64,000 bases of DNA from Spirochaetaceae bacterium (lineage in GTDB: Bacteria; Spirochaetota; Spirochaetia; DSM-2461), in NCBI GenBank assembly GCA_051531975.1, contig JAOPTT010000020.1:32001-96000 (forward strand). The letters run 5' to 3'. Under the pieces are notes generated by a model, which did not search any database, was not told the DNA's origin, and saw only the letters and a list, made by a program, of their open reading frames with translations. Within the stretch, counting starts at the first letter, position 1, and each line of letters opens with the position of its first letter. The translations under genes were made by a program, and so were the position numbers. Positions 11,714 through 34,792 of the stretch are shown here, in pieces.

Positions 11714-11766
11714 ATGCCTATAATTAAAAATATAAAAGGTAGGAATATACTTGATTCTTCGGTAAT
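11714..11766 (+). pseudogene. eno: Decayed 5' stub of an enolase gene
   Basis: ATG at 11714 reads MPIIKNIKGRNILDS, then after a 1-nt shift GN; resembles the conserved enolase N-terminus M..I..I.AREILDSRGNPT. Confidence 0.6.
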
Positions 11767-12569
11767 TATATATCTTCATGGTTCACATTTTGAAAAGTAT
11801 TTAATTCCAATAATACTTTTTTTCTAAAAGTTCCAGGAGGAATATTACATTTACTTTTAAACAATTTATTAAAATATTGTGTATCAGGTATTCCTACTGA
11901 AGAACAAATCTCTTTTATAGATAATGTCGTTGTTGCTAAAAGTTCCTGGGAACGTTTTATTCGTAAATTATTTAGATATTTAAGTGGTGGATCATCAAAA
12001 TAATCTTTAAATATAACAGAAAAATAACCGGGAGCATAACATGCTATTTCAGATAATTCATTTATACTTAAAACCTTGTTCAAATTCGCTTCCATATATT
12101 TTTTAACATTCAATAAAGGGATAGGGCATTGTTCATTAGAATCCTCTATAAAATTTGATAACAAAATATCTATAGAACCTCTAACAAGCATTTCTGATTT
12201 AAGATCAGAATTAGTATAATTTGCAGAGATATTATTAAACATATTTGTTAAGTTATATGTAGATTCTGGACTATTTATTAGTATTGGACTGTAATCAATA
12301 AAACTGTATAGATCTTTATCATAATTAATTGTGAAATTTATATAACTATGGTCAAGATAGGATTTACATTTAGATTGTATCAGAGAAAATGAAGGTAGTA
12401 GGTATAGGTTATCTTTTTTAAGTTCTATTATACGATCATTAGTTATTATCTGAGCCTCTCCGCTATGTATAAAGTATAATCTGTTTACAGGTAGTGCTGT
12501 TAAATCCTTAGACCATTTGGATCCAACTCTACTACGACCTGCAGTATGAATATTATAATAATTTAACAT
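11766..12569 (-). CDS. AraC-family regulator (cupin sensor + HTH)
   Basis: LYFIHSGEA cupin; YAPGYFSVIFK..SIKEICSSVGIPDTQYFNKLFK. Confidence 0.9.
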   Translation of the reverse strand: MLNYYNIHTAGRSRVGSKWSKDLTALPVNRLYFIHSGEAQIITNDRIIELKKDNLYLLPSFSLIQSKCKSYLDHSYINFTINYDKDLYSFIDYSPILINSPESTYNLTNMFNNISANYTNSDLKSEMLVRGSIDILLSNFIEDSNEQCPIPLLNVKKYMEANLNKVLSINELSEIACYAPGYFSVIFKDYFDDPPLKYLNNLRIKRSQELLATTTLSIKEICSSVGIPDTQYFNKLFKSKCNIPPGTFRKKVLLELNTFQNVNHEDI

Positions 12570-12666
12570 TAAATCTCCATATCTGAGAAATATACAATGA
12601 TGACTAGGTTTTCTCTATTTAATTATGATGTTTTATACAAGATAATGTAAGTACTGGGAGATAATA

Positions 12667-14421
12667 ATGAGTAAAAAACCTAATGTAGTATTTGTATTAA
12701 CTGATGACCAAGGATATGGCGATCTTAGTTGCACTGGAAATCCATGGCTAAAAACTGACAATATTGACTCATTTTATAATGATTCTATGATAATGAATAA
12801 TTTTCATGTTGGACCTACATGTGCACCTACTAGGGCAACACTAATGACAGGACATTATGCTAATTCAACAGGTGTATGGCATACAGTTGGTGGCCGGTCT
12901 CTGCTTAGAGAAGATGAAGTCTCTATTGCTACAGCGTTTAAAAATGGTGGTTATAAAACAGGAATCTTTGGTAAATGGCATCTTGGTGATAATGCTCCAT
13001 ATAGACCCCAGGATAGAGGTTTTGATAAAGCCATTGTTCATGGTGGAGGTGGTATAAGCCAGGCTCCAGATTATTGGGGTAACGATTATTTTGATGATAC
13101 ATATATGGTAAATGGTGAGTTTAAAAAATTTGAAGGTTATTGCACCGATGTTTGGTTTAGAGAAGGTATTAACTTTATTAAAGAGAACAAAGAGAATCCA
13201 TTTTTCTGTTATATACCAACAAATGCACCCCATGGACCATTTAATATAATGAAAAAGTATAGGGATCTATATAAAGAAAAACTGGATATAACAGATGCAA
13301 AACAGAGAGAGCGTTTTTATGGAATGATTACTAATCTGGATGAAAACTTTGGAATATTAAGAGATACATTAAAAGAACTGGAGTTGGAAGATAATACTAT
13401 TTTAATCTTTATGACTGATAACGGAACATCCTGTGGTGCTACTTTTGATGATTCTGGAAAGCTTATAGATGGCTGGAATAACGGACTTAGAGGCTGTAAA
13501 AACTCAGAGTATGATGGAGGTCACAGAGTTCCATTTTTCTTAAGATGGCCAAATGGTGGTTATGATGGTGGTAAAAATATAGATCAGCTAACAGCAAGTA
13601 TTGATTTAATGCCCACACTACTTGAGATGTGTGGAGTAGAACACGGTTTAACATTTCATGGTAAATCTATTGTTCCACTACTGGATGGAAATTCAGATAA
13701 ATGGACAGATAGAGCTGTTGTAACAGACTCCCAAAGGGTTACAGATCCAATTAAATGGCGTAAAAGTGCAGTAATGACAAATAGATGGCGTTTAATAAAT
13801 GGCTTAGAGTTATACGATATGAATAATGACCGTTTACAACAGAATAATTTAGCTTTAGATCAACCGGAAGTTGTTATTAGTTTAAGAGAAGAGTATGACA
13901 AATGGTGGGATCTCGTTAAGCAAAAATATGATGAAGAGATACCTATATCCATTGGTTTCAATTCAGAAAGAGTCCGCCTATCATCCCATGATTGGAGAGG
14001 TGATGGAGATCATGCTGTATGGAATCAGTCTCAGATAAGAGATGGAAGAATTACAAATAGCTATTGGGAAATTAATGTCAAAGAGTCCGGAACATATGAA
14101 ATAGAAATGTGCCGATGGCCAATAGAGGGAAATGGTAGATCTATTAGAGAGGGAATAGATGGAGATGACATCGTCTGGAATAAAAATGATGTAGACGAAA
14201 CTAAATATGATTTTTATACAGGTGGTAAAGCCCTAAACATAATTAAAGCATCGATACTGATTGATGATATTAATAAGCAATCGGATGTAAATGATAGTGA
14301 TAATAGTATTAAATTCAGAGTAGAAATAAAAAAAGGTAAAACACATCTACAAACATATTTTACAACTGAAAGTGGGGATAGTCTTGGTGCTTATTATACC
14401 TATGTGACCAAAGTGTTATAG
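12667..14421 (+). CDS. Formylglycine-dependent S1 sulfatase (arylsulfatase-like, possibly S1_17)
   Basis: PNVVFVLTDDQG, CAPTR, GKWHLG, TDNG; extra C-terminal domain; no signal peptide. Confidence 0.92.
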   Translation: MSKKPNVVFVLTDDQGYGDLSCTGNPWLKTDNIDSFYNDSMIMNNFHVGPTCAPTRATLMTGHYANSTGVWHTVGGRSLLREDEVSIATAFKNGGYKTGIFGKWHLGDNAPYRPQDRGFDKAIVHGGGGISQAPDYWGNDYFDDTYMVNGEFKKFEGYCTDVWFREGINFIKENKENPFFCYIPTNAPHGPFNIMKKYRDLYKEKLDITDAKQRERFYGMITNLDENFGILRDTLKELELEDNTILIFMTDNGTSCGATFDDSGKLIDGWNNGLRGCKNSEYDGGHRVPFFLRWPNGGYDGGKNIDQLTASIDLMPTLLEMCGVEHGLTFHGKSIVPLLDGNSDKWTDRAVVTDSQRVTDPIKWRKSAVMTNRWRLINGLELYDMNNDRLQQNNLALDQPEVVISLREEYDKWWDLVKQKYDEEIPISIGFNSERVRLSSHDWRGDGDHAVWNQSQIRDGRITNSYWEINVKESGTYEIEMCRWPIEGNGRSIREGIDGDDIVWNKNDVDETKYDFYTGGKALNIIKASILIDDINKQSDVNDSDNSIKFRVEIKKGKTHLQTYFTTESGDSLGAYYTYVTKVL

Positions 14422-14428
14422 TACACTG

Positions 14429-14456
14429 TTGACAATCTCATTTTATAGGGTAGAAT
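14429..14456 (+). promoter_or_regulatory. Sigma70 promoter candidate
   Basis: TTGACA (14429-14434), 16-nt spacer, TAGAAT (14451-14456), upstream of the large AraC gene. Confidence 0.55.
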
Positions 14457-14482
14457 AATCTACTACAGCAGGGGGATAAATA

Positions 14483-16771
14483 GTGTTTTTCAAAAAAAAA
14501 CAGGTGAAAACTAAAAAGAGTATATTTAGAAGGTTTTTTATTCCGTATATGGTTTTACTTTTAATATTTTTTATCCCTCAGTTAATTATTAATCAGAACT
14601 TTTATAATAACCTTAAGTCTAATCACTCTGAAAAAATTAAGGAATTAACAAATAGGAGTCAAAAACAGGTAGATTCAAGATTTACTGAAATAGATAATAT
14701 CATGTCACAGATAATACTTGATCCTGAATTCAGATATTCTGCCCTCTCTTACTCTACAGATTCAAAAAAACTTTATAACTATGCTCTCTCTCTCCCTCGG
14801 TATCAATATATTAATAGTGTTCTTGAGGATATAATTATCTATTTTTATCAAAATGAGCTTTTTATTAAACCTGGAGTATTTTCATTAAGACCAGAAACAT
14901 TTTTTAAAGCAAATATTAATGATAATTATGTGAATTATAAACCCTGGGTAGAAGATATTAAATCAAATATAGGAGTTGATAGGTTTTTTAGATCATCCTT
15001 TAAGAACCTGGGTTTTGATACAACAACAGCAGATTTAATAACTTATATAAAAGATTTTCCAATAGGTAATAAAAATTCTACAAAAGGTATAATAATGTCT
15101 TCAATCTCCTTAAAAAGTCTTTTTTCAACTTTTGATAAAACTCAATTTGGTGAAAAAGGGGATTTTATTATTTTATATAATGATGAGTTTCTAGCATCTC
15201 TAAATTTTGTAGATAATTATAATCATCTTAATTTAAAAGAACTGCAACATAGTTCTACAGTTGAAATTGGTATAGAAACATTTCAGGTAATAACAATAAA
15301 ATCTAGATTTAAAGGGATCACTTATGTATCTTTAATACCTGATACTCTATTACTTCATCAGATTAATAATTTTTTAAACATCTCAATTACTGTGTTTATA
15401 ATCTTTTTGCTTATTGGAATATCAATCTCAATATTTTTTGCACTACAATCAACTAAACCAATTAATAAATTGTTTAATCTTATAGATTCCAAGGAAAAAA
15501 ATAACAAACAGGACAGTAGATTTAACTCCTTTGAGGATATTTTTACTTCTGTGGAGAAGATTGTGGATAAAAATGATCTTTTACAGGTAAATATAAAGAA
15601 AAACAGAGATAATCTTAAGTCAGGTTTTCTATCACAACTTATTTTTGGTAACTTTAAAGATCAAGAAACTTTAAATAGCTATCTAAACTATATTGAACTT
15701 CCATTATTAAGTAAAAATTACATATTGACCATTGGAAAACTAACCGGTTTTAATATTGATAATAAAGATAGAGAGGTAATAGAGGAGCTGGAACAAAAAA
15801 AGCTACTGATTAAAACAGTTATAGAAGAAGAGTTCAATGATTCTGTATTAATACAGAATTTACAAAGTGATAAAGTTATAATTCTATTTCATAGCAATAA
15901 AGGTTTTGATAAAAATATTATTAAATCATTTCTTAACCGAATAAGTCAAAAACTAGAAGATCACCTTAAGATAAAGAGTCAATTTGCTTTAGGTAATGTT
16001 TATAATAAAATAATCGATACAGCATTTTCATATAAAAGGGTTATAACTATATTTAATAATCCTGTACCTGCAGGGGATAGGGTAATATGTGTGGATAATA
16101 GTAATTTTACTGAAAAAATATGGACCTACTCCCTTGAAACAGAGTTACAGTTAATTTCTTTAGTAAGAATGGGGGAGTTTACAAAATCTATCGGTCTTTT
16201 TAATCAGCTAAAAGAGGATAATGAAAATTTAAGCCGAAGCAGAAAACTTGATTTTTTATATGAACTAAGTGGAACAGTATACAAGTTAGCTTACCAGTTA
16301 TTAGATGAAGATAATATCGCATCATTTGAAATACAGATGAACAAAAATAGGCATAGTGAACATATAATGGACTATTACACAGGTATAGAAGAACAGATAA
16401 AACAACTATGTTCAATTTCTGAAAAAAATAAAGAGAGCCACAATACCCAGCTAAGAGACTCTGTATTAAAATATGTTAATGATCACTATGCTGATTTTGA
16501 TATTAATCTTTACAAAGTTGCATCCCATTTTAATTTGGCTGAAAAATATCTTTCCCGCTTTTTTAAGGATCAGGGTGGACATAATTTTGCAAGTTATATT
16601 GAAGATCTTAGAATGAACCATGCTGTAATGTTAATGAGTGATACAAAATACTCCTTAACTGAAATATCTAAAAAGGTTGGATATTGTAGCCATAATACTT
16701 TTTATAAAGCATTTAAAAGAAAATTCAGCGTAAGTCCTGGTGTTTACAGGGAAAAAATGTCAGATAAGTAG
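14483..16771 (+). CDS. Membrane-spanning YesS-like AraC regulator (TM - extracytoplasmic sensor - TM - C-terminal AraC HTH)
   Basis: Two TM helices flanking a ~260-aa sensor; C-terminal LAEKYLSRFFK..EISKKVGYCSHNTFYKAFKR; no histidine-kinase motifs. Confidence 0.88.
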   Translation: MFFKKKQVKTKKSIFRRFFIPYMVLLLIFFIPQLIINQNFYNNLKSNHSEKIKELTNRSQKQVDSRFTEIDNIMSQIILDPEFRYSALSYSTDSKKLYNYALSLPRYQYINSVLEDIIIYFYQNELFIKPGVFSLRPETFFKANINDNYVNYKPWVEDIKSNIGVDRFFRSSFKNLGFDTTTADLITYIKDFPIGNKNSTKGIIMSSISLKSLFSTFDKTQFGEKGDFIILYNDEFLASLNFVDNYNHLNLKELQHSSTVEIGIETFQVITIKSRFKGITYVSLIPDTLLLHQINNFLNISITVFIIFLLIGISISIFFALQSTKPINKLFNLIDSKEKNNKQDSRFNSFEDIFTSVEKIVDKNDLLQVNIKKNRDNLKSGFLSQLIFGNFKDQETLNSYLNYIELPLLSKNYILTIGKLTGFNIDNKDREVIEELEQKKLLIKTVIEEEFNDSVLIQNLQSDKVIILFHSNKGFDKNIIKSFLNRISQKLEDHLKIKSQFALGNVYNKIIDTAFSYKRVITIFNNPVPAGDRVICVDNSNFTEKIWTYSLETELQLISLVRMGEFTKSIGLFNQLKEDNENLSRSRKLDFLYELSGTVYKLAYQLLDEDNIASFEIQMNKNRHSEHIMDYYTGIEEQIKQLCSISEKNKESHNTQLRDSVLKYVNDHYADFDINLYKVASHFNLAEKYLSRFFKDQGGHNFASYIEDLRMNHAVMLMSDTKYSLTEISKKVGYCSHNTFYKAFKRKFSVSPGVYREKMSDK

Positions 16772-16823
16772 AAATAATCCATGTTCACTACACATCATCA
16801 GCCTTAAATGTAGAAATAATCCA
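16768..16823 (+). promoter_or_regulatory. 14-bp direct repeat GTAGAAATAATCCA, 42 bp apart; candidate activator site for the ABC operon
   Basis: Exact copies at 16768-16781 and 16810-16823. Confidence 0.65.
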
Positions 16824-16904
16824 CTACTAATTTACCATTTCAACTACTCCAATATCGATATTTGATACAATAATTATATTATCAAGTATCGGCGAGGAGG
16901 ATAT

Positions 16905-17834
16905 ATGAGAAGCAAATTGACATCAGGTTCAATTCTAAAAGATTTTCGTAAAAACTATCAGTTACATATAATTGTACTGATTCCAATTGTGTTTATTATT
17001 ATTTTTAACTATATACCTATGTATGGAGTGCAAATTGCATTTAAAAACTTTATTCCAATAAAAGGAATAATGGATAGTCCATGGGTTGGATTAAAATATT
17101 TTAAAAGGTTTTTTGATTCACCAATGTTTGGTAGGGTAATGTGGAATACCATTTCATTAAGTGTATATCAACTTGTTGCAGGATTCCCAATACCTATTCT
17201 TTTAGCACTGGCTATGAACAATACTAAAAAGAAATTGTTTAAAAAAAATGTTCAGATGTGGACTTATGCCCCCCATTTTATATCAACAGTTGTTCTTATT
17301 GGAATGATGTACCAGTTTTTCTCACCAAAATTGGGAATTGTAAATGATGTTATTAAACTTTTTGGTGGTGACCCAAAAATGTTCATGGGTAATCCTATGT
17401 ATTTCAGACATATGTTTGTATGGTCAGGAGTATGGCAGAGAGCGGGCTGGAGTTCAATAATTTATCTATCAGCTCTATCAGCTGTAGATACTTCCCTGCA
17501 TGAAGCTGCAATTGTAGATGGTGCAAATAGGTTACAGAGAGTGTGGCATATTGATATACCAGCAATTGTTCCAACAATGGTAACACTTTTTATTCTTAAT
17601 TTTGGTCGGGTGATGTCCATTGGTTTTGAAAAGGCACTTTTAATGCAAAATGCAACAAACCTAGAAGCCTCGGAAATAATTTCTACCTACGTATATAAAG
17701 TTGGTTTAGCATCTACAGTTCCAAACTTTTCATATGCGTCAGCTATAGGTCTATTTAATTCAGCAATAAACTTTGCCCTCTTAATCATAGTCAATAGAGC
17801 AGCTAAAAAAATGACAGAGACATCACTTTGGTAG
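16905..17834 (+). CDS. Carbohydrate ABC transporter permease (LplB-like)
   Basis: YIPMYGVQIAFK, EAA loop HEAAIVDGANRLQ. Confidence 0.93.
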   Translation: MRSKLTSGSILKDFRKNYQLHIIVLIPIVFIIIFNYIPMYGVQIAFKNFIPIKGIMDSPWVGLKYFKRFFDSPMFGRVMWNTISLSVYQLVAGFPIPILLALAMNNTKKKLFKKNVQMWTYAPHFISTVVLIGMMYQFFSPKLGIVNDVIKLFGGDPKMFMGNPMYFRHMFVWSGVWQRAGWSSIIYLSALSAVDTSLHEAAIVDGANRLQRVWHIDIPAIVPTMVTLFILNFGRVMSIGFEKALLMQNATNLEASEIISTYVYKVGLASTVPNFSYASAIGLFNSAINFALLIIVNRAAKKMTETSLW

Positions 17835-17843
17835 GAGAAGGAA

Positions 17844-18785: not shown

Positions 18786-18788
18786 TTT

Positions 18789-18838: not shown

Positions 18839-20509
18839 ATGAAAAAATTATTAGTAGTTTTGCTGGTTTTTGCAATTTCAATCGCTTCGTTATCAGCTGG
18901 TGGTAACAATGAAGCAAAAGATGGAGCTGTATTGGAAGATACCGCGTCCAATGTTAACCCTCCAGGTGTCTTTCCAATAGTTAAAGAGCCTATACAGGTA
19001 AAAATGTATATAACTCCAAGCGCTAAAGTAATCGATATCGAGACTAATGAGGCTCTTAAATATATTGAAGAATTAACAGGAATAGATTTAGTATTAACTG
19101 TTGGTCCTGAACAAGCAAAGGAGAAGATTAACCTTATGTTAGCTTCTCAAACTGACCTTCCTGAAGTATTTTTAACATATGAAGGAATCTCTATGGAGCA
19201 GGTGTCTATAAATGGTGAATATGGTGTATTTGAACCTATTGATCATCTATTGGAAAAATGGGCACCAAATACTATGAGAGCATTTGAATATCAGCCAGAT
19301 ATCAGAAGACAGATTACTGCACCTGATGGCCATATCTACAGCTTTTCTAACTATTCAGAAGGTCAACATGTTATGCATAGTCAAAAGATGTGGGTAAATC
19401 AAAAATGGCTTGAAAGAGTTGGACTTGAAGAACCTACAAATCTTAAAGAATTCAAAAATATGTTAGTTGCTTTTAAAGAAAAGGATGCAAATGGAAACGG
19501 AGATCCTACCGATGAGATTCCACTTGGTTCTATTGCGGATAATACATGGAGAGCAGACATATTTGGTTTCTTAATGAACCCATTTGTTCCAACAATCGAT
19601 TTTAAAGAGGCATATCTATATAATGATAAAGGAACAATTAAAAACTCTGTACAACAGGCAGGTTGGAAAGATGGTTTATATTATATGAAAGATCTTTATG
19701 ACGAAGGTCTGCTTGATCAGGAAGCTTTTGTATTAACTAAACCTCAAATGAAAGCTTTAGTTATGAATCCTGAAGGTGTAATGGTTGGAGCAATTCCTGC
19801 TGGAGCTCCAGGACCTTTTATTAATTCTGCTCTACCTGGACCTAGGGATGAATACAATGCTATTGCTCCACTAACTCAGGTTAACGGTGACAGACCAAGA
19901 ACACCATACTTTAAACCAAAAGCACTTCCTAGATTTGTTATAACTTCTGAAGCTAAAAACTTAGAGGCGATTGTTAGACTTGGGGATCTATTAATGATCG
20001 ACCCATTTAGTGGTAAGCCAGGTGATTTAGAGATGGGACTTAATGTTTGGTACGGACCTAATGGTTGGACAAAGCCTGCTGATGGTGTTAAAGGTAATAA
20101 TGGAAGTCAAGCTCTATACGAGTGGGCATTTAGTTTTAATGATCCAACTAACCTGAACTTTGCTAACCTTCCTGGACTTTTTTCTCAAAAACTTAAAAAA
20201 GGTTCAATGGTTGCTAAAAAAGGATTTGATTTAGAGACTCTATTATGGAATGTAACTGAAGAGAAGTACGAACCATATAGTGACCCTGTATTTGTACCAC
20301 CAGTAATTATTAACAATGATGATGTTTCTGAAGCTGGAGAGATCAAACAGATCTTAATGGACTACATGAAAGAGAATAATGCTAAATTTGTTATGGGTAT
20401 TAGAGATCTTGATACTGAGTGGGATACTTACCAGGAAGAGTTAATAACTTTAGGACTAAACCGTTATGTTGGTATGGTTCAAACTGCATATAACAGACAG
20501 TACAAATAA
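18839..20509 (+). CDS. Oligosaccharide ABC transporter solute-binding protein (LplA-like)
   Basis: Signal peptide ending SLSAGGNNE; DANGNGDPTDEIP motif; ~550 aa. Confidence 0.9.
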   Translation: MKKLLVVLLVFAISIASLSAGGNNEAKDGAVLEDTASNVNPPGVFPIVKEPIQVKMYITPSAKVIDIETNEALKYIEELTGIDLVLTVGPEQAKEKINLMLASQTDLPEVFLTYEGISMEQVSINGEYGVFEPIDHLLEKWAPNTMRAFEYQPDIRRQITAPDGHIYSFSNYSEGQHVMHSQKMWVNQKWLERVGLEEPTNLKEFKNMLVAFKEKDANGNGDPTDEIPLGSIADNTWRADIFGFLMNPFVPTIDFKEAYLYNDKGTIKNSVQQAGWKDGLYYMKDLYDEGLLDQEAFVLTKPQMKALVMNPEGVMVGAIPAGAPGPFINSALPGPRDEYNAIAPLTQVNGDRPRTPYFKPKALPRFVITSEAKNLEAIVRLGDLLMIDPFSGKPGDLEMGLNVWYGPNGWTKPADGVKGNNGSQALYEWAFSFNDPTNLNFANLPGLFSQKLKKGSMVAKKGFDLETLLWNVTEEKYEPYSDPVFVPPVIINNDDVSEAGEIKQILMDYMKENNAKFVMGIRDLDTEWDTYQEELITLGLNRYVGMVQTAYNRQYK

Positions 20510-20534: not shown

Positions 20535-20565
20535 AAGGAGTTGCTTTTTTGCAGCTCCTTTTTTT
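20535..20565 (+). terminator. Intrinsic terminator/attenuating stem-loop after the SBP gene
   Basis: AAGGAGTTGC-T6-GCAGCTCCTT followed by a T tract. Confidence 0.75.
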
Positions 20566-20576
20566 ATGGAGAAAAA

Positions 20577-25351: not shown

Positions 25352-26104
25352 ATGCAAAAGCCAAAAATTCTAATATTACCTCTGTTATATATATTTTTTA
25401 TAACTCCTTCATATTCTGAGGAGCAACAACTTTTTAAATTCACAGGAGGCGCTCCTCTTGATTCATATCAATCAATTACTATAATACCTATTTTGAAAGA
25501 GGTGTTTAAAAAAATGAATAAAAAAGTAACTTTTAAATACAATCCAAGCCTCAGGTCTTTAAAATTATCAAATTCAGGAGAGTATGATGGGGAGTTACAT
25601 AGAGTTTATGATTTTCACGAAATTACGAACAAGAAATATTCAAATTTGATACGTATTGATACATATATGATGTCCATTCATCTTTCGTATTTCACTACAA
25701 TTAAGGGACTGAATATTAAAAATAGAGAGGATTTGGCACAGTATAAAGTTGCTTATTACCGTGGTAGAAAAAATGTGGATAACTTGCTAAAAGGTTTTCT
25801 CCCGCCGAGTCAGATTTTTTTAACTAATAATGATGATATTGCATTTAAGATGTTATCCACTGGAAGAGTGGATATTGTTATTGCAGAGGATGTTGAAGGA
25901 TTATTCTTAATTAAAAAAGAATTAAGTTATTCAAATATATATAAACTTAAAAATATTAAAGAGACCAAGATTTATACTTATTTAAATAAAAAGCATAGTT
26001 CTCTGCTTCCTCTAATAAATAAAACTCTTACTGATATGAAAGAAGATGGATCATATCAGAGTATCTTAGAAGAATCCCAGTTGGAATATTTTAACCGTTT
26101 ATAA
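25352..26104 (+). CDS. Orphan family-3 (amino-acid-type) periplasmic solute-binding protein
   Basis: Signal peptide; RSLKLSNSGEYDGEL, MLSTGRVDIVIA, MKEDGSYQSI. Confidence 0.8.
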   Translation: MQKPKILILPLLYIFFITPSYSEEQQLFKFTGGAPLDSYQSITIIPILKEVFKKMNKKVTFKYNPSLRSLKLSNSGEYDGELHRVYDFHEITNKKYSNLIRIDTYMMSIHLSYFTTIKGLNIKNREDLAQYKVAYYRGRKNVDNLLKGFLPPSQIFLTNNDDIAFKMLSTGRVDIVIAEDVEGLFLIKKELSYSNIYKLKNIKETKIYTYLNKKHSSLLPLINKTLTDMKEDGSYQSILEESQLEYFNRL

Positions 26105-26111
26105 ATTTAAA

Positions 26112-27431
26112 TTATAACTTAATATGTCTTTCTAGTTTTTCGACTATCTCAGGAAATGTATCCTTAATATTTGTAGTTTCATCTGGGTTAGATTTAATAT
26201 CAAATAGATATAACTCCTTATTCTTGTCGTGTATAAGTTTATACCTCCCATCAAAAGCGAGCTTCCAATTAAATGATTTACCTTTTTTACTGAAATTAAG
26301 AGCTGATGTTACAACATTCCTAGGAATATAAAATCCACCCTCAAATTGTTGTTTTAAAGAGCAACTATCCATTTGCGTTGGAACCTCAAGGCAGGCATAG
26401 TCAAGAAAAGTTGCGGCTAAATCCATTGTAGTTACAACTCCATCATAGGCTTCAGATTTTAATACACCAGGACCAGAGACTATTAAGGGTACAGCTACAG
26501 AACCGTGAAAAGGTTGACATTTTCCCCATAAATCGTGATCTCCAAGCATATCGCCATGGTCTGATGAAAATACTATAAGCGTGTTTTCCAATAACCCACT
26601 CTCTTTAAGATAATCTAAATATTTACCTATTTGATTGTCTATGTTTTCTATCATAGCGGCATAATTTCTTCTAATATTAAGATGTATTGATTCATCATAT
26701 TCAGTAGAGTTTATAGGCATTGGAAATTTTTGGTCTTTATATAGTTTTGACATGGACTTGGTAATATCCCATGGGGTATGGGGCCCAGTAAAGTTTACCT
26801 GTAAAAACCACGGTTTATTAGCTGGTGTTTCTTTTATTAGATTCAGCCCATTCTCCGCTAACCAGTTATCACAATAAAAATCGTCCTTTAGAGGTGTTGG
26901 AAAAGTTGACAGGTTGACTCCATCAGTTATTCTCTTTGACATATCATCTATATGGTTAGACATTACTTTGTTATCTTTTAGATGTGAAATATAAGGGCCA
27001 AAATATCCATTTCTTGAACTTGTTATACTATCAATCTTACCTTCATTATCCACACCATCACTGAATCCCCACTCGTTTAGGAGATGTTTTCCATCGACTC
27101 CCCAGTTAAAATCAGGCTTATGTAGGTCAAATTTCCCACACCCTAAAACCTGGTAATCTGCTTTATCTCTTAGTAGTTTATAAAATGTTTCCTGCTGCAA
27201 AGGGTAGTTTTCTGCATTGGATCTGACACCACAATTTTTATACTCTCTGCCAGATGCTAATGAAGCCCTACTTGGCGCACAAAGTGGCGAAGGGCAGATA
27301 GCTGAGTTAAATACAATACCATTTTGAGAAAGATAGTCCAGGTTAGGTGTTTTTAATGGTAGCTTTTTATTGCTGCCAAGCCAGTCCCACCTCCACTGAT
27401 CTGGGAAAAAAAATAGAATATTAGGTTTCAT
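26112..27431 (-). CDS. S1 sulfatase
   Basis: PNILFFFPDQWR, CAPSR, GKFDLH, SSDHGDMLGDH. Confidence 0.92.
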   Translation of the reverse strand: MKPNILFFFPDQWRWDWLGSNKKLPLKTPNLDYLSQNGIVFNSAICPSPLCAPSRASLASGREYKNCGVRSNAENYPLQQETFYKLLRDKADYQVLGCGKFDLHKPDFNWGVDGKHLLNEWGFSDGVDNEGKIDSITSSRNGYFGPYISHLKDNKVMSNHIDDMSKRITDGVNLSTFPTPLKDDFYCDNWLAENGLNLIKETPANKPWFLQVNFTGPHTPWDITKSMSKLYKDQKFPMPINSTEYDESIHLNIRRNYAAMIENIDNQIGKYLDYLKESGLLENTLIVFSSDHGDMLGDHDLWGKCQPFHGSVAVPLIVSGPGVLKSEAYDGVVTTMDLAATFLDYACLEVPTQMDSCSLKQQFEGGFYIPRNVVTSALNFSKKGKSFNWKLAFDGRYKLIHDKNKELYLFDIKSNPDETTNIKDTFPEIVEKLERHIKL

Positions 27432-29226
27432 GTTGTCTCCTTAAAATTATAGATTGAATTGTTAGTCCATTCATCGACTCTTTAGCATAGGATTTCCTGT
27501 GGTTTGTCCAATCCTTATTAAGACACCAGGGCCCAGCATGGGGGCTCTTAATATCTTTTTCTGTCCAGATACCACTCTGTTTTATCGATTGTGAATCTTT
27601 TTTTATTAATATCTCTTTAATACCTGGCTCTTTAAAAATTAATAATCCTAGAGATATTGATTTAATTTTCAACTGCTTTTTTTTATGGTTTATCTCATTA
27701 CCATCACTAAATCCTTCTAGGAAACCAGAACTTTGACCAGTTAATAATAGTTTTAATGATTTGTCTCCAACCTGTATAACAATAGGCATCTCTAGCATAT
27801 CCAAAGAGTATTTTATTTCAATTTTAAAATTTTCACTATTTTTGATGTAAAAAGACCATTTCTTCTCTATATCTGGGATGTTAGTATTATACTGAAGGTT
27901 GTTATAATTACCCTGGGATATCTCATTTTCTCTAGTTAATTCGATTTTGTTATCTATCTCTATAGCAATATTTTTTTTAACAACAAGTTTAGAATCTAAC
28001 TGACACTTTATTACGGTTACATAGGGTTCCGGGGAGAAGTCAAAAAGATCAATTAAAATTCTATTGTTATGTGTTTTCCATTTTATCTCATTACCACCTG
28101 TCATGAAACTTATTTTCTTTGGTAGATTATTTATTTCAGGCAGGAGAATTTTATTATCTTTTGGCCATTTAGATACCATTAAATATAAGGTTTCATTAAT
28201 CCATGTTGCATAACCCCAGGTAAGGTAGTTAAAAGGGTTATTATTAACATTAAAAATCGAATCCCTGTTTATTTTTACCCATTCTCCTATTTTTGAAAGA
28301 ACCTGTTTTTCATAGTTCAAAATAGATCCATCAGCCTTGGGTCCTATATTAAGTAGATAATTCCCACCAGAGGATGTAACTCTACAAAGTAGATCAATCT
28401 GTTTTCTTAGCTGTGTCTCGATATTTGGTCTATCTATCCAGGACTTATAACCCCATGAGTGATAAAAAGTACAAGGTGTCTCACAACCCTGATTTATAGG
28501 ATTTTCTGGAAGGTGGTTATCTGGCAGGGTTAAAAAGTCCCCTTGGTTGTTCATTACCCTTCCACTAACAAGACAGTCTGGCTGCTGTTTATGGACTGTT
28601 TCTGACAGTTTAATACTATCCTCAACTGTAGGTAGTCCCATATCAAAAAATACTTCGTTTATTGCACCATAGTTATTTAACAATTCCCTTAGCTGTTTTA
28701 TAGATAGGTCTAGGTGATCTTTTGTGAATTCCTCAAAAACTGCATATTTGGTTTCTGGTTCTCTGGTAACCGCGGTATTTGAGTTCCAGTCCGGATTTGA
28801 AAAGTATATTCCAAGTTTAATATTGGATTCTAAACAGGCTTCTGATAGCTCTTTTAATATATCTTTTTTATACGGAGCCAGATCCACAACGTTAAAATCT
28901 GTTGTATCGGTTTTAAACAGACAAAATCCGTCGTGATGTTTAACTGTTAGGACAATATATTTCATTCCAGCATCTATAGCAGTTTTTACTATATTGGGGG
29001 CATTAAACTTTACTGGATTAAAATCTTTAGTCAGGTTTTGGTATACTTCTCTTTTTATGCTGGCATGTCGCTGTATCTGCTCACCTAATCGCGGGATCTT
29101 TTTTCCATTCCATATTCCTGCTGGTATTGAATAAAGTCCCCAGTGAATAAAAAGTCCAAACTTCAGAGATGACCATTTATTAAGTGCTTTAATATTTATT
29201 GTATGTTTTCTCTTTGGTATATCCAT
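27421..29226 (-). CDS. GH29 alpha-L-fucosidase with C-terminal beta-sandwich/CBM-like extension
   Basis: KFGLFIHWGLYS, VKHHDGFCLF, FFDMG nucleophile region, GGNYLLNIGP. Confidence 0.9.
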   Translation of the reverse strand: MDIPKRKHTINIKALNKWSSLKFGLFIHWGLYSIPAGIWNGKKIPRLGEQIQRHASIKREVYQNLTKDFNPVKFNAPNIVKTAIDAGMKYIVLTVKHHDGFCLFKTDTTDFNVVDLAPYKKDILKELSEACLESNIKLGIYFSNPDWNSNTAVTREPETKYAVFEEFTKDHLDLSIKQLRELLNNYGAINEVFFDMGLPTVEDSIKLSETVHKQQPDCLVSGRVMNNQGDFLTLPDNHLPENPINQGCETPCTFYHSWGYKSWIDRPNIETQLRKQIDLLCRVTSSGGNYLLNIGPKADGSILNYEKQVLSKIGEWVKINRDSIFNVNNNPFNYLTWGYATWINETLYLMVSKWPKDNKILLPEINNLPKKISFMTGGNEIKWKTHNNRILIDLFDFSPEPYVTVIKCQLDSKLVVKKNIAIEIDNKIELTRENEISQGNYNNLQYNTNIPDIEKKWSFYIKNSENFKIEIKYSLDMLEMPIVIQVGDKSLKLLLTGQSSGFLEGFSDGNEINHKKKQLKIKSISLGLLIFKEPGIKEILIKKDSQSIKQSGIWTEKDIKSPHAGPWCLNKDWTNHRKSYAKESMNGLTIQSIILRRQHET

Positions 29227-29287
29227 ATTTTAAATAATCATATCTTGAATTAAATAATCAATGCTTTCTATAAAATTTCATTGTCAG

Positions 29288-29323
29288 GTGGATTATTTCA
29301 CTATGGAATATAGAAATATTCAT
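29288..29323. promoter_or_regulatory. Divergently oriented copies of the GAAATAATCCA motif in the GH29/sulfatase divergent promoter
   Basis: GTGGATTATTTC (29288-29299; reverse complement GAAATAATCCAC) and the weaker TAGAAATATTCAT (29311-29323). Confidence 0.55.
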
Positions 29324-29406
29324 GGTGTATATAAATTGTAAACTTGAACAGAAAGTTCACATTGTTAATAATAAAAAGAGTAGATATTTATAATAGGAGA
29401 AGTTAA

Positions 29407-30792
29407 ATGAAAAAAAATATTGTATTCTTTTTTACCGATGATCAGCGATTTGATACTATAGCTGCTTTAGGAAACAAAGATATCATAACACCTAATATGG
29501 ACAGGCTTGTTAATAGTGGAACAACATTTACCCACGCCCATATTCCCTGTGGAACATCCGGCGCAGTTTGCATGCCTAGTAGAGCTATGTTACATACAGG
29601 TAGAACTCTTTTCCATCTACAAAACGAAGGGCAGGAAATCCCAAAAGAACATATTACATTAGGCGAAACATTACAAAAAGCAGGCTATGAGACTTTTGGT
29701 ACAGGGAAATGGCATAATGGAACATCATCTTATGCTAGAAGTTTTACAGCAGGCGGAGAAATATTTTTTGGTGGAATGTTTGATCATTGGAATGTCCCTG
29801 CATATAATTTTGATCCGACAGGGAAGTATGATAAAACTGTGCCATATACTACCGCTGCATTTAGTTCCAGAAAATTAAATATTATGAACACTGATCATAT
29901 CACCCCTGGTAAACACTCTTCGGAACTGTTTGGAGATGTATCAGCAGAGTGGATCAAAAATTATAATTCCGATAAACCATTTTTCAGTTATATTTCATTT
30001 ATGGCTCCCCACGATCCAAGAACTATGCCTGAAAAATTTAAAAATATGTACAGTGCAAAAGATATTCCACTACCGGAAAATTATCTGCCTGAACACCCTT
30101 TTGATTTTGGTATAAGGAACTTAAGGGATGAAGTATTAGCCCCATATCCAAGACAACCCCAGGAAGTTAAAGAACATATTGCAGAATATTATGGAATGAT
30201 AACCCATCTGGATAACGAGATGGGTAAAGTCATAAAAGCTGTTGAAGATAGAGGAGAGCTTGAAAATACACTATTCATTTTTGCAGGTGATAACGGTTTA
30301 GCTTTAGGTCAACATGGACTGTTTGGTAAACAAAACCACTATGAACACAGTATCCGTGTACCACTAATTTTTTCAGGACCTGGTATTCCAAAAAATGAAT
30401 TAAGGGATTCATATGCATATCTACTAGATATTTTCCCAACTATTTGTGAATACCTGCAGGTAGACAAACCGGAAACTGTAGAGGGAATAAGTTTATTGCC
30501 TCTAATAGAAGATGTAAAAAAAATAAATAGGCATACACTCTATTTTGCTTTCACAGATATTATGCGAGGGGTAAAAGATAGGCAATATAAACTTATTGAA
30601 TATGCAACACCATGTTGTAGAAAAACTCAACTTTTTGATCTTATAAATGATCCACACGAAATGAATGATCTATCTGATGATGAAGATTACCTTAGTATTA
30701 AAAACTGTCTAAGAAGTCAAATGTTTATATTAAGAGATGAATGGGATGATCGAAAACATCCACTTGGAAAAAAATACTGGGATAGGTATTAG
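29407..30792 (+). CDS. S1 sulfatase (choline-sulfatase-like annotation class)
   Basis: NIVFFFTDDQR, GAVCMPSR, GKWHN, APHDPR, GDNG. Confidence 0.92.
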   Translation: MKKNIVFFFTDDQRFDTIAALGNKDIITPNMDRLVNSGTTFTHAHIPCGTSGAVCMPSRAMLHTGRTLFHLQNEGQEIPKEHITLGETLQKAGYETFGTGKWHNGTSSYARSFTAGGEIFFGGMFDHWNVPAYNFDPTGKYDKTVPYTTAAFSSRKLNIMNTDHITPGKHSSELFGDVSAEWIKNYNSDKPFFSYISFMAPHDPRTMPEKFKNMYSAKDIPLPENYLPEHPFDFGIRNLRDEVLAPYPRQPQEVKEHIAEYYGMITHLDNEMGKVIKAVEDRGELENTLFIFAGDNGLALGQHGLFGKQNHYEHSIRVPLIFSGPGIPKNELRDSYAYLLDIFPTICEYLQVDKPETVEGISLLPLIEDVKKINRHTLYFAFTDIMRGVKDRQYKLIEYATPCCRKTQLFDLINDPHEMNDLSDDEDYLSIKNCLRSQMFILRDEWDDRKHPLGKKYWDRY

Positions 30793-30801
30793 GAGAGAAT
30801 A

Positions 30802-33063
30802 TTGAATAAACATCATAATATAATAGCAGATAAAACATTACAGGTCGCACTAGATACAGTCAAATCTATCTATGCCACAGATAAAAATGCACATATAGAT
30901 ATACTTTTAGAAGATAGATACTATTTTGTGGATCATACGCTAATAATTGCTGGAGACTATTCTCCTGGATCAGATGGACGTTTAACTTTTAAAGCCTTAA
31001 ACAGTAGCAAACCTATTATTGGTTCTGGTACTAAGGTATTTGACTGGAAACCAGTAGATACCTGTAATATTCCGGATTATATTAAATTATCAGATGAACA
31101 GAGATCAAAATTATTTGTATCAAATGTTCCTGGGGATATAGATGATGTAAAATGCCTATTCAAAAATGATAAAATTTTACAGAGAGGAAAAAGTCGACCT
31201 TTAGAAGCCAGGGTTACAAAATATGAGATGCTAAAAAGTTTTAATGTTGCCAATGAGTCTGACCGAAAACTTCTAAAACAAGTTCCTGTTCCTGGAAAAG
31301 AGTTAGAAAAAATAAGGTTTTCAGAGGATCTTGATATACTTTTTACAGCTGTACCATGGCAGTTATCGATACTTCCTGTAGAAAGATTTGATATAGAAAA
31401 TGGATTTGTTTATACAAAGGAAGAGGGTACAGTTCCTGCATGTATGAAACTACATGAACCTTCATGGCTTGAAAATCAACCAGAATTCATCTCTAATCCT
31501 GGAGAATGGGCTTATGATTCAAAGTTGAAAATGATCTTTTATTGGCCAGTACAGCCCTCCGATCTTTCCGACATTGTAATTCCAACATTAAAGAACTTAA
31601 TTACTGTAGAAGGTTCAATCGACTATGATGGTCCAGTAGATAGTCCAGTTAATAATATTCATTTTAGTGGAATAACATTTAAACATGGGATAAGGGATAC
31701 AAAAGACTCTCTATCAAAAGCTAGAGGACTTCAACATGACTGGGAATTTTTTGATAGATCTAATGCATTATTACAATTTAGAGGAACACAAAACTGTAGT
31801 GTATCAAACTGCCGATTTACAACAACAGGTGGAGTGGCTATTAGAGGTGATCTGCATGTTCAGAACTTGTTAATTGAAAATAGTATGATTGATAATATTG
31901 GTTCAATGGGAATCCTTTTATGTGGCTATGGTCCTGGTTCCAAGGATGTTAATAAAAATAATACTATCAGAAATAATATAATCCACCACACAGGGGAGAT
32001 TTATCACCATGGACACGCCATCTTTTTATGGCAGAGTGGGAATAATAAGGTATCACATAATACAATTCACCACGTTCCTAGAAAAGCAATTGGAATCGCA
32101 GGTCTCAGGCTTCCACTTTTAGAACTAAGAGAGGTAACTTGGGATGATTCATCATTATTAATCCGATGGGACGAAATTGATAAGGCTACTAATGGTCTAG
32201 GTCTTGAACTAACAAATAAAATTAAAAAATCTGAAATAGATGGGGATGATTTGGTAACAGATAATCTTCGTGGAGAATTATGGAAGTTATATCTGGATTT
32301 TCTGCATGGTCGTAATAATATAATTGAGTATAATAACGTATATCGTGCTCTGGACAAGCTTGGTGATGGTGCTGCAATAAATATTTCAGGAGCAGGAGTT
32401 GGTAACATTATCTACAGAAATTATGTACATCATGTTACAACACACCACGCTTCAGGTCTAATGAGAACCGATGACTGGCAATCAGGTACTACTTTTCAGG
32501 AGAATGTTCTATATAAAGCTAATGTCTCTGGGATAGTTAGAAAAAACATGACCCATCTGGTAAATAACTATATTATAGATGTAAGTACAAAGCAGACGGT
32601 TCGTTTTGCTTCATATCCAAATGAAAGTTCTACCAAAGGGGCACTAATAAATAAGAACATATTCCTTGAAACAGAGAGTCCTTTTGTTTTGTATAATGAG
32701 GGATATACAAGTCCTGGGATGGTTCATATCTCCGATGTTAACTCAGATTTTAATATCATTCATAACCTTTCTAACTCAAATATCTCAGAGGAATTATTAG
32801 ATCAAAACCGGAGAAATTTACTTGATAACAATAGTTTAAATAAGGACCCCCAATTATTAGACCTTAAAAATGAAGACTTTAGACTATCACCTGATTCTCC
32901 ATGCCATTCCTTGGGTATACTTTCTATTGATATTAAAGAGATGGGAATTACCAATGAATATCCAGAAGATTTACTACAGTTTGACGATGATCCTGGTTAC
33001 GGAGACCCAGAAGTTTATCACCGTGGTAGAAACAACGACAAAAAGGAGTATCTATTTTGGTAG
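30802..33063 (+). CDS. GH141-like right-handed parallel beta-helix glycoside hydrolase (putative fucosidase/exo-fucanase)
   Basis: WLENQPEFISNPGEWAYD, QHDWEFFD, Asn-ladder repeats (NNTIRNNIIH, NNKVSHNTIH, NNIIEYNNV), LGDGAAIN, RTDD. Confidence 0.78.
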   Translation: MNKHHNIIADKTLQVALDTVKSIYATDKNAHIDILLEDRYYFVDHTLIIAGDYSPGSDGRLTFKALNSSKPIIGSGTKVFDWKPVDTCNIPDYIKLSDEQRSKLFVSNVPGDIDDVKCLFKNDKILQRGKSRPLEARVTKYEMLKSFNVANESDRKLLKQVPVPGKELEKIRFSEDLDILFTAVPWQLSILPVERFDIENGFVYTKEEGTVPACMKLHEPSWLENQPEFISNPGEWAYDSKLKMIFYWPVQPSDLSDIVIPTLKNLITVEGSIDYDGPVDSPVNNIHFSGITFKHGIRDTKDSLSKARGLQHDWEFFDRSNALLQFRGTQNCSVSNCRFTTTGGVAIRGDLHVQNLLIENSMIDNIGSMGILLCGYGPGSKDVNKNNTIRNNIIHHTGEIYHHGHAIFLWQSGNNKVSHNTIHHVPRKAIGIAGLRLPLLELREVTWDDSSLLIRWDEIDKATNGLGLELTNKIKKSEIDGDDLVTDNLRGELWKLYLDFLHGRNNIIEYNNVYRALDKLGDGAAINISGAGVGNIIYRNYVHHVTTHHASGLMRTDDWQSGTTFQENVLYKANVSGIVRKNMTHLVNNYIIDVSTKQTVRFASYPNESSTKGALINKNIFLETESPFVLYNEGYTSPGMVHISDVNSDFNIIHNLSNSNISEELLDQNRRNLLDNNSLNKDPQLLDLKNEDFRLSPDSPCHSLGILSIDIKEMGITNEYPEDLLQFDDDPGYGDPEVYHRGRNNDKKEYLFW

Positions 33064-34535
33064 AGGAAAAAATAGAAAACAGTTGGGAATCATTAATAAA
33101 CCATGGTATTCCAGAGTGGATGCTTGATCAAAAATTTGGAATCTATGCACACTTAGGACTATATTCTGTTCCGGGTTTTGGTAACGAATGGTATGAAAAG
33201 CATATGCATGACCCAAGTAGTGATATATATCAGAAACATATTGATGAATTTGGACCAACAGCAGATTTTAGCTATCTAGATTTTTTACCTAAATTGACAG
33301 CAGATAAATTTGATGCAGCAGAGTGGGCTGAGTTATTTAAACTCTCAGGAGCAAATTATGCCGGTCTCTCTCTGGCACATCATGATGGTTTTGGGCTCTG
33401 GGATAGTGATGTATATAAATGGAACGTAGGGAAAATGGGGCCAAAGAGGGATCTTTATGGTGAACTTGCTACAGAGATTAAAAAAAGAGGGATGAAACTT
33501 GTGGCCCCTTTCCATATTTTACGTGGATATAACTGGGTTCTTCCAGAGTGGAATCAATGGGATCAGTCATGGAATGAGGATGTTGTAGAACAAGGGAAAA
33601 AAGAAGGCTGGCAGATCTTTGATGCAAAATATAAAAACTTTTATTGGAATCAGATTGCTGGGGCGGATTATAAAGACTTTTTATTACAATGGAAGGAATC
33701 AATAAAAGAAGTAATAGATAAATATGAACCAGACCTAATGTGGTTTGATGGTGGAAGATTTTCTTTAGGCGAAGTGGAACAATATACTCTAGAAGTTTTA
33801 TCTTATTATCTTAATAAAAGTATTATGTGGGAAAAAGAGGTTGGTGTCTTTAATAAACTCCCAGTAAGCCTTATATATAACTTTCCTGAAGAATTTGGAA
33901 TCAGTCAGTTTGAAGAAGGCAGAGATAGACCTGAAGTTATGACTAGGCCATGGAATGATGATATGAAAATAAGTCATGGTTCCTGGGGTTGGACAGAAGG
34001 ACAAACATATAGATCAGGTAAGGAGATTCTACATGGTCTTATAGACCGTACAGCAAGAGGCGGCAGTCTCATGTTATCACTATGTCCTAAAGCTGATGGT
34101 TCCATTTGTGAAGAGCAGAAAACATCCCTTAGAATTGTTGGTGAATGGTTAAAATATAACGATGAAGCAATTACTGGAACCAGACCATGGCTTTTACATG
34201 GAGAAGGGGATATACAAAAGTTAAAAGTTAAAAATGATAAGGGCAAGATATATTGGAAATATGATAAATGTAATGGAAATGATATTAGATATACAATGTC
34301 TAAGGATGGCAATATTATTTACGGTATAACTCTTGGTTGGCCAGGTGATAATGTTTATTTTAAATCACTTGGATTATTATCAAAATATCTTAATAAAGAG
34401 ATTAGCCATATTCAACTTCTAGGGTCTAAATCAAAGACTGTTTGGAAACAGGACGATAGTGCATGCAATGTAAAACTTGATCCTAATTTAGATAGGAACT
34501 TATTAGCTTATACCTGGAGAATAAGATTAAAATAA
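33057..34535 (+). CDS. GH29 alpha-L-fucosidase
   Basis: IPEWMLDQKFGIYAHLGLYSVP, HHDGFGLWDS, MWFDG, PKADG, GTRPW. Confidence 0.9.
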   Translation: MVEEKIENSWESLINHGIPEWMLDQKFGIYAHLGLYSVPGFGNEWYEKHMHDPSSDIYQKHIDEFGPTADFSYLDFLPKLTADKFDAAEWAELFKLSGANYAGLSLAHHDGFGLWDSDVYKWNVGKMGPKRDLYGELATEIKKRGMKLVAPFHILRGYNWVLPEWNQWDQSWNEDVVEQGKKEGWQIFDAKYKNFYWNQIAGADYKDFLLQWKESIKEVIDKYEPDLMWFDGGRFSLGEVEQYTLEVLSYYLNKSIMWEKEVGVFNKLPVSLIYNFPEEFGISQFEEGRDRPEVMTRPWNDDMKISHGSWGWTEGQTYRSGKEILHGLIDRTARGGSLMLSLCPKADGSICEEQKTSLRIVGEWLKYNDEAITGTRPWLLHGEGDIQKLKVKNDKGKIYWKYDKCNGNDIRYTMSKDGNIIYGITLGWPGDNVYFKSLGLLSKYLNKEISHIQLLGSKSKTVWKQDDSACNVKLDPNLDRNLLAYTWRIRLK

Positions 34536-34545
34536 ACATCTCATT

Positions 34546-34569
34546 TGTAGGGGGTTATAGACCCCTACA
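34546..34569 (+). terminator. GC-rich stem-loop ending the sulfatase-GH141-GH29 operon
   Basis: TGTAGGGG/CCCCTACA stem. Confidence 0.65.
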
Positions 34570-34792
34570 GTTCAAATATATTTTATCACTGTAATGCATT
34601 TTATTTCCCTTAATCAATTAATATATTTTTATCTCTAATTATATGCTTTCTTTAATCATAAGATATAAAAGATTAGAAATACCCTAAAAATATAGTACAC
34701 TTGTATTATAACAAAATAAACATAATGACTGATTTCTAATTCTATTATCCCTTATATAATTTAATTAGATTGGAAAATATAAGGAGATCAAA

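Follow-up and report, generated by a model that had tools for sequence, protein, structure and literature searches.

We analysed a 64,000-nucleotide stretch of the genome of a free-living Spirochaetaceae bacterium (GCA_051531975.1, contig JAOPTT010000020.1, positions 32,001 to 96,000; hereafter the window) and describe a gene cluster of about 23 kb within it that combines four sulfatases, five glycosidases, an ATP-binding cassette (ABC) importer and two AraC-family regulators. Judged by its genes, it is a real and rare ABC-centred locus predicted to act on sulfated α-L-sugar oligosaccharides. We propose, with moderate confidence, that it serves the cytoplasmic scavenging of short sulfated oligosaccharides of α-L-galacto-configured sugars, namely L-galactose and L-fucose; it is unlikely to be a locus for fucoidan pure and simple. 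The proposal starts from two of its enzymes, sulfatase 22598 and glycosidase 33057 (genes are named by their first coordinate in the window), whose nearest solved relatives are the adjacent porphyran exo-enzymes BpS1_11 (PDB 7SNJ) and BpGH29 (7SNK).

Enzymes pointing to L-galactose

Sulfatase 22598 matched the solved structures 7SNJ (466 bits), 7LHA (464 bits) and the GlcNAc-6-sulfatase 5G2V (376 bits), after which the scores dropped to 135 bits. Both 7SNJ and 7LHA are described as S1_11 sulfatases, 7SNJ being the B. plebeius porphyran sulfatase BpS1_11 (PMC9096561; 10.1101/2023.03.30.534863). The site that binds L-galactose-6-sulfate (L-Gal-6S) in BpS1_11 is reported to consist of S83, H133, H214, D215, R271, D345, R347 and H428 (10.1101/2023.03.30.534863). 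As a proxy we used the S1_11 sulfatase from pBUN1, an agar locus of B. uniformis, in which all eight residues are present, each shifted by 3; mapped through it, all eight positions are kept in 22598 (C60, H110, H208, D209, R257, D342, R344 and H425). A heparin-locus S1_11 enzyme has R at D209 and E at H425; it also has R in the R257 column, in a poorly aligned stretch, and only the D215 and H428 positions clearly differ. In a 25-row S1_11 tree, the KAPHR clade (support 99/100), which includes the heparin-locus enzyme, excludes 22598. Close S1_11 homologues were found in none of 400 phylum genomes, with at most three candidates scored per genome. L-Fucose is a 6-deoxy sugar that has no O6, so a 6-O-sulfatase such as 22598 cannot act on fucose itself and must have some other sugar as its target. 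Among the candidates L-galactose has the best support, and 22598 is predicted to be an exo-L-galactose-6-sulfatase, the activity of its closest solved relatives from porphyran degradation.

Among 31 solved sequences, GH29 enzyme 33057 scored best against BpGH29 (7SNK, 7LJJ; 258 bits), an α-L-galactosidase in which Asp327 is reported to fix O6 (PMC9774334). D302, H32, E44 and W310 of 33057 align with Asp327, His68, Glu80 and Trp335 of BpGH29. At the Asp327 position the other two GH29 enzymes of the locus differ: 24201 has C there and 27421 has P. All three exceed the PF01120 cut-off and share the nucleophile Asp, the D231 column being invariant. Enzyme 33057 would probably release L-galactose, although its Asp327 equivalent is shared across the clade and is not diagnostic. 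The original prediction, made from the window's letters, had named a sulfated fucan as the substrate. The fucose isomerase (FucI) route and the set of GH29, GH141, GH151 and sulfatase genes stand in its favour, but the S1_11 6-O-sulfatase of L-Gal-6S type and a GH29 enzyme nearest to an α-L-galactosidase do not fit it.

Gene content, import and the remaining enzymes

The features of the locus are as follows.

11766..12569, minus strand: AraC-family regulator (PF12833, E 1e-14), divergent from sulfatase 12667
12667..14421, plus strand: S1 sulfatase with CAPTR (PF00884), no signal peptide
14483..16771, plus strand: 762-aa AraC regulator, PF12833 at residues 680-757, hydrophobic N-terminal segment by hydropathy
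16905..17834, plus strand: ABC permease of LplB type (PF00528), 51% identical to a permease of plasmid pZRK30-3
17844..18785, plus strand: ABC permease of LplC type (PF00528), 51% identical to a permease of pZRK30-3
18839..20509, plus strand: large oligosaccharide-binding protein of 556 aa, signal peptide by hydropathy, AlgQ-type PDB matches
20535..20560, plus strand: hairpin and T run just 3' of the binding-protein gene, from a sequence scan
20541..22613, plus strand: GH151-like α-L-fucosidase homologue (PF14871, E 2e-40), probable start ATG at 20577
22598..24184, plus strand: predicted S1_11-type 6-O-sulfatase with CTPSR, from PDB matches, site residues and tree
24201..25244, plus strand: short GH29 enzyme, catalytic domain only (PF01120, E 2e-62)
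25352..26104, plus strand: family-3 solute-binding protein (PF00497, E 5e-6)
26112..27431, minus strand: S1 sulfatase with CAPSR (PF00884), GKFD replacing GKWH
27421..29226, minus strand: GH29 enzyme with C-terminal extension (PF01120, E 8e-68)
29407..30792, plus strand: S1 sulfatase with CMPSR and GKWH (PF00884)
30802..33063, plus strand: GH141-like β-helix enzyme, no signal peptide, fold match to BT_1002
33057..34535, plus strand: GH29 enzyme of the BpGH29 clade (PF01120, E 5e-76)

Every sulfatase, glycosidase, importer gene and AraC regulator listed in the original prediction is present where it had been placed; the family-3 binding protein at 25352-26104 had been left out. The four sulfatases match PF00884 with E-values from 8e-54 to 7e-46, and all carry the C/S-x-P-x-R motif. 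Four of the six PF01120 matches in the genome (the three GH29 enzymes and the GH151 enzyme) lie within these 23 kb of a 5.46-Mb assembly that is 98.5% complete, a clustering above chance. Sulfatase matches are spread more widely, only 4 of 48 falling inside the locus; the genome encodes 45 at E<=1e-25, and the next highest count among 37 other family genomes is 24. In what follows, C2, C4, C7, C11 and C20 are contigs of the host genome (G000), whereas G003, G018, G022, G042 and G044 are related genomes. No full copy of the intact locus was found in the related genomes and loci examined.

The spirochaete identity of the host, its lack of a SusCD system and the ABC-centred layout were all borne out. 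Three FlaA matches exceeded the cut-off, with none in 14 control genomes; no match to PF00593 (TonB receptor) or PF07980 (SusD) was found in the genome, while controls gave matches; and LplBC-type permeases are encoded next to a binding protein. The locus holds no ABC ATPase, and four MalK/UgpC-like ATPases are encoded elsewhere in the genome. Binding protein 18839 has no Pfam match and resembles AlgQ-type oligosaccharide-binding proteins in the PDB (E 1e-33 to 1e-35); its nearest homologues, 39-68% identical, are mostly unnamed. By a simple hydropathy scan rather than SignalP, a signal peptide or hydrophobic N-terminus is clear on this protein and absent from all nine enzymes of the locus. 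An anaerobic sulfatase maturase is encoded at C4:194275 (TIGR03942, 469 bits against a cut-off of 349). Because the nine enzymes lack signal peptides, and because a GH168-type enzyme was also not found (PF14885, which we take as a marker for GH168, had no match over cut-off in the genome; GH107, GH174 and GH187 were not searched for), cytoplasmic scavenging of oligosaccharides is indicated rather than degradation of polymer at the surface. Short fragments would thus be imported and then broken down in the cytoplasm.

This arrangement recalls Gram-positive-style LplABC loci with a large AraC sensor, such as the Bacillus lpl, ytc and yes operons, in its permease-permease-large binding protein order, its lack of a local ATPase, its adjacent AraC gene and its cytoplasmic exo-enzymes; it differs from them in its diderm spirochaete host and its enzymes for sulfated α-L-sugars. 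The 762-aa AraC regulator, which we presume to be comparable to YesS, would be a membrane-anchored sugar sensor. The hairpin may serve to stabilise the transporter transcript or to terminate it; the scan found 6 hairpin and T-run sites against 9.2 expected by chance, so the evidence from the hairpin is weak. Scanning for promoters yielded 88 sites where chance would produce 96, and a repeat scan revealed nothing operator-like.

Among the remaining glycosidases, the nearest solved match of 24201 is 8Z63 (421 bits) and that of 27421 is 9RZY (239 bits), both labelled α-L-fucosidase. Enzyme 20541 matches 6TVK, presumably a GH151 structure, over residues 13-685 (389 bits, E 5e-115); GH151 occurs in 27 of 400 class genomes. 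By sequence, 30802 matches 9RX2 (E 1e-108) and BT_1002 (E 6e-8), with no PF21231 match at E<=0.001. In a fold search with its predicted model (pLDDT 91.5), BT_1002 ranked first (Z 33.9, root-mean-square deviation 2.6 over 502 residues, 20% identity); the next row had Z 27.1, and 9RX2 was not among the rows. No paper naming 8Z63, 9RX2, 9RZY, 9RZX, 9S0X or 9S03 was found in our literature search. At E<=1e-20, none of the 37 other genomes of the family showed a homologue of 30802; a full-length homologue, 59% identical and the sole plasmid match, lies on pZRK30-3. GH141 is reported to include fucosidase, xylanase and endo-fucanase activities (PMC12786026), and since these activities are varied, membership of the family does not fix the substrate of 30802.

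Sulfatases 12667, 29407 and 26112 are distant from solved relatives, with best PDB matches of 183, 149 and 137 bits. For 12667 these are carrageenan sulfatases, and we presume, from impression, that it is S1_17-like. S1_17 itself is described as holding both fucan and carrageenan 2-O-sulfatases (PMC9096561; PMC6315715). Homologues of 12667 occur on Persicobacter plasmid pPP8 (47% identity), beside GH16, GH2 and GH29 genes, and on a Catenovulum plasmid, two genes from a 22598 homologue and beside a cluster of aldo-keto reductase (AKR), amidohydrolase and Zn-dehydrogenase genes that presumably resembles an oxidative L-galactose route. The original prediction had taken S1_17 or S1_25 as marks of a fucan locus; 29407 lacks the one published S1_25 hallmark that was compared. 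SWF4-type S1_25 enzymes are characterised by a His-to-Gly change, with KFG replacing KWH (PMC6315715); 29407 has GKWHNG, and it matches the S1_25 structure 6HR5 with only 139 bits. Sulfatase 26112 carries GKFD rather than GKWH.

A copy of 29407 at C2:538626 (92% protein identity, 87.5% DNA identity to 29407-30792) adjoins tripartite tricarboxylate transporter genes, and homologues of 26112 and 29407 are paired at C2:537263 and in G042. Homologues of the two sulfatases also stand behind TctABC genes (L110:5378-12018 on C2; L166:7465-13232 on C11; also in G044 and G018), a neighbourhood that suggests import of small sulfated sugars.

Related loci and a candidate L-galactose route

The closest homologous locus lies on plasmid pZRK30-3 of Fusobacteria bacterium ZRK30 (CP102408.1). 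It encodes a maturase, a LacI regulator, the two permeases (51% each), a binding protein, the GH141 homologue, an S1_11 sulfatase (49%, KAPHD) and a 29407 homologue (54%), and is preceded by genes for an FGGY kinase, AKR, GatD, GatY, PfkB, FucU and an epimerase. Thus the permeases, GH141, S1_11, second sulfatase and linked AKR, GatD and FucU genes are alike, whereas the LacI regulator, local maturase, GatY and PfkB in place of GatZ, and a large CBM4_9 protein, whose function might point to the substrate, are not; among its annotated genes inspected, none encodes GH29 or GH151. No FucI was found on the plasmid (the chromosome was not searched). The locus is known from annotation, and no published characterisation of it was found. 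Beside it (L154:27409-33110) lie genes for HpfG, a (2S)-3-sulfopropanediol dehydratase over its cut-off, a sulfite exporter and an alcohol dehydrogenase, and pZRK30-3 may serve both sulfonates and sulfated sugars.

Its linked AKR, GatD and FucU are 65%, 45% and 48% identical to proteins of an operon in our host:

C7:121909-128579 (L161:9910-16580): regulator and operon for FGGY kinase, GatD-like protein, GatZ, FucU and AKR, the operon itself at C7:123-128.6 kb

GatZ and FucU exceed their cut-offs. L-Galactose can be reduced to galactitol, and galactitol-1-phosphate dehydrogenase yields D-tagatose-6-phosphate. The FucU mutarotase homologue together with AKR suggests an L-aldose as input, and the operon could encode a reductive L-galactose route via galactitol to tagatose-6-phosphate. 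In G003, of the same genus, a GH29 gene, a 29407 orthologue (57%) and a BpGH29-type GH29 gene (46% identical to the B. uniformis enzyme) stand directly upstream of a whole operon of this type. The GatD gene occurs in 8 of 38 family genomes and the 29407 orthologue in 6, both together in 4 (p 0.012, ignoring kinship; related genomes do not count as independent samples, and many of the assemblies are incomplete). No published description of a reductive L-galactose route was found in a full-text literature search, with most subscription journals outside it.

Parts of the locus recur elsewhere. A Chloroflexota locus combines four GH29 genes, GH151 (49%), S1_11 (46%) and a sugar ABC system and holds the closest 33057 homologue. 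Partial sets in relatives comprise LplBC, binding protein and GH151 (G018), LplBC, binding protein and GH29 (G022) and the 26112/29407 pair (G042). A metagenome scan returned 29 loci, most of them short and showing little synteny; one carries a homologue of 24201 and one a homologue of 33057.

The bacterium also encodes L-fucose catabolism outside the locus: at C7:155-162 kb (L104:873-12307), FucI exceeds both cut-offs and its kinase and aldolase neighbours fall below theirs. Beside them are a DeoR regulator and a glycyl-radical enzyme with an 87% homologue in G003; the latter was considered as a propanediol dehydratase and set aside, as it lies below all NCBIfam cut-offs. Two GH95 genes are also present in the genome.

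Several observations weigh against L-galactose as a substrate. In the 25-row tree, 22598 falls outside the porphyran clade (99/100) too, at an open fork beside it; it is only 45% identical to the B. uniformis S1_11, and the D-R-H triad is common, occurring in 74 of its 119 nearest homologues. The S1_11 of the Chloroflexota locus is of KAPHR type. Enzyme 33057 is only 34% identical to the BpGH29-type enzyme, and the GH29 cluster of BpGH29 is reported to hold xyloglucan fucosidases as well (PMC11189522). In a control, D302 proved clade-wide, with D in 75 of 79 homologous loci, and was dropped as an L-galactosidase diagnostic for that reason. As for the C7 operon, its GatD and FGGY lie below cut-offs, and its true substrate could be a different sugar, or galactitol. 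Of the 37 other family genomes, 22 have AKR, which adjoins GatZ in 6 of 12 loci checked and in 1 of 8 wider regions, that of G003; on these counts AKR alone was discarded as a pathway marker. The BpGH29-type gene is found in 7 of 38 family genomes, only 2 of them with the GatD gene (p 0.46), and family-wide co-occurrence of operon and locus genes is weak.

Alternative substrates and the proposed pathway

Could the locus instead serve fucoidan oligosaccharides, with the 6-O-sulfatase removing sulfate from a sugar other than fucose that makes up a small part of a galactofucan or heterofucan? We regard this as doubtful. Fucoidan loci are reported to contain GH29, GH95, GH141, endo-fucanases, S1_17, S1_22 and S1_25 (PMC11685898, PMC11068906). 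The three GH29 enzymes, GH151 and GH141 belong to families listed for fucoidan breakdown, 30802 could be endo-acting since GH141 includes endo-fucanases, 24201 and 27421 lack the O6 Asp, and the FucI pathway and GH95 genes are at hand. Like the fucoidan loci of Planctomycetota, Lentimonas and Wenyingzhuangia, ours joins GH29 and GH141 to several S1 sulfatases in a genome with a FucI route; unlike them, it has no endo-fucanase by the one proxy used (PF14885), includes a 6-O-sulfatase, and has few GH29 and no secreted enzymes. There are only about five GH29 genes against 13-15 described in Planctomycetota fucoidan loci (PMC11685898). In addition, 29407 lacks the SWF4 hallmark, the closest homologous locus, on pZRK30-3, lacks FucI, and the homologues of 12667, 22598 and 33057 that occur on plasmids belong for the most part to loci of agar type.

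A patchwork of separately acquired or duplicated modules for more than one substrate seems improbable to us. It would account for the two mid-locus genes on the opposite strand, the unrelated family-3 binding protein that interrupts the locus, the 87.5% DNA-identical copy of 29407 beside a tricarboxylate transporter, and relatives (G018, G022, G042) that carry only subsets, with no full copy found. Yet all five glycosidases come from families acting on α-L-galacto-configured sugars, and pZRK30-3 and the Chloroflexota locus each repeat four to five parts together.

It is very unlikely that the locus is for porphyran or agaran oligosaccharides only, with L-galactose steps encoded here and β-D-galactosidase and GH117 steps elsewhere. 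At C7:5.9-13 kb the genome does contain two GH117 homologues (50% and 46%), an anhydrogalactonate cycloisomerase homologue (61%) and an ABC importer, and it also encodes a GH2 that shares 35% identity with that of the B. uniformis agar locus. However, D- and L-galactose alternate in porphyran, yet the locus has no β-galactosidase; five α-L-glycosidases and four sulfatases exceed the need; and B. uniformis agarase and GH16 queries had no match in the genome, whose single GH16 is presumably laminarinase-like by its motif. Searches with PF17992 and PF18206 were empty, and the controls were equally silent. The presence of GH117 and cycloisomerase homologues but no agarase match is in keeping with a scavenging host. 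The locus shares with the porphyran exo-cycle of B. plebeius and B. uniformis (BpS1_11, BpGH29, BpGH2C) the eight S1_11 residues and a same-clade GH29 with the Asp327 equivalent. It departs from that cycle in having no SusC/SusD, GH16/GH86 or GH2 in the locus, in its ABC import and cytoplasmic enzymes, and in its three further sulfatases, GH151 and GH141. Within the GH117 cluster (L162:5873-15016, C7), an aldehyde ferredoxin oxidoreductase takes the place of the expected NAD-linked anhydrogalactose dehydrogenase, which may represent an anaerobic way of breaking down agar oligosaccharides.

Glycans of animal origin, for instance mucin that is sulfated and fucosylated, or fucosylated chondroitin sulfate, are scarcely credible substrates: S1_11 is reported to hold GlcNAc-6-sulfatases as well (PMC6315715) and GH29 and GH151 are fucosidase families, but the KAPHR signature seen in the heparin-locus enzyme is missing from 22598, and the locus has no hexosaminidase, lyase or GH88.

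In the scavenging of L-galactose- and L-fucose-containing oligosaccharides that we favour, other microbes would cut the polymer, and the binding protein and two permeases would import the fragments, powered by a MalK-type ATPase encoded elsewhere, while the AraC sensor would turn the genes on. The C4 maturase would activate the four sulfatases, which would desulfate from the non-reducing end, 22598 acting at O6 of L-galactose and the remaining three at different positions. The GH29, GH151 and GH141 enzymes would then free the desulfated sugar, 33057 probably releasing L-galactose. L-Fucose would enter the FucI-kinase-aldolase route, and L-galactose possibly the FGGY-GatD-GatZ-FucU-AKR operon via galactitol, galactitol-1-phosphate and tagatose-6-phosphate.

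A wider claim, put forward tentatively and in its entirety unlikely, is that this is an anaerobe pathway for multiply sulfated α-L-galactans or L-galacto-fucans with an undescribed reductive L-galactose route. Sulfated L-galactans occur in red-algal agarans and as invertebrate L-galactans. On that claim, this GH141 clade, and possibly GH151, would cut α-L-galactosyl bonds, and the other sulfatases would take 2-, 3- or 4-sulfates off L-galactose. Mutarotase, AKR to galactitol, FGGY kinase and galactitol-1-phosphate dehydrogenase would be followed by GatZ in the spirochaete or by PfkB and GatY in Fusobacteria.

Our search of the literature for spirochaetes in connection with fucoidan, GH141, L-galactose or sulfatases, with most subscription journals outside it, turned up no account of a spirochaete locus of this kind, and a fish-gut study places Spirochaetota among the phyla that have no capacity to use fucoidan (PMC11333855). 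If our proposal is true, anaerobic spirochaetes would be secondary consumers of sulfated marine glycans, with ABC import in place of SusC/SusD, and clusters of GH29, GH141 and sulfatase genes would not automatically be fucoidan loci. The analysis also names three sulfatases remote from solved relatives, a GH141 clade that is rare and cytoplasmic, and five genes that are candidates for a reductive L-galactose pathway.

Other features were observed in the same genome. Upstream of the window on C20 (L102:5404-19608 and L103:136-6459) lies a second sulfated-glycan locus with genes for a PfkB kinase, KDPG aldolase, enolase-family dehydratase, aldehyde ferredoxin oxidoreductase, two sulfatases, a two-component system, an ABC importer, a GH78-like enzyme and GH2. 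On C2 (L106:5328-16383), GH95, an ABC importer and a GH29-like protein with F5/8 domains surround a broken sulfatase gene in two pieces with one stop. Within the window, an adenine methyltransferase that bears HTH_17 at its N-terminus, and also a TaqI_C domain, is encoded at 47737-49647, with no nuclease recognised among its neighbours, and a bifunctional glutathione synthetase GshAB, over NCBIfam cut-offs, at 49636-51978. At 53244-61581, GH9-like and GH94 genes run divergently from those for a ROK regulator and an ABC importer of sugars, and may serve the use of chito- or cello-oligosaccharides.

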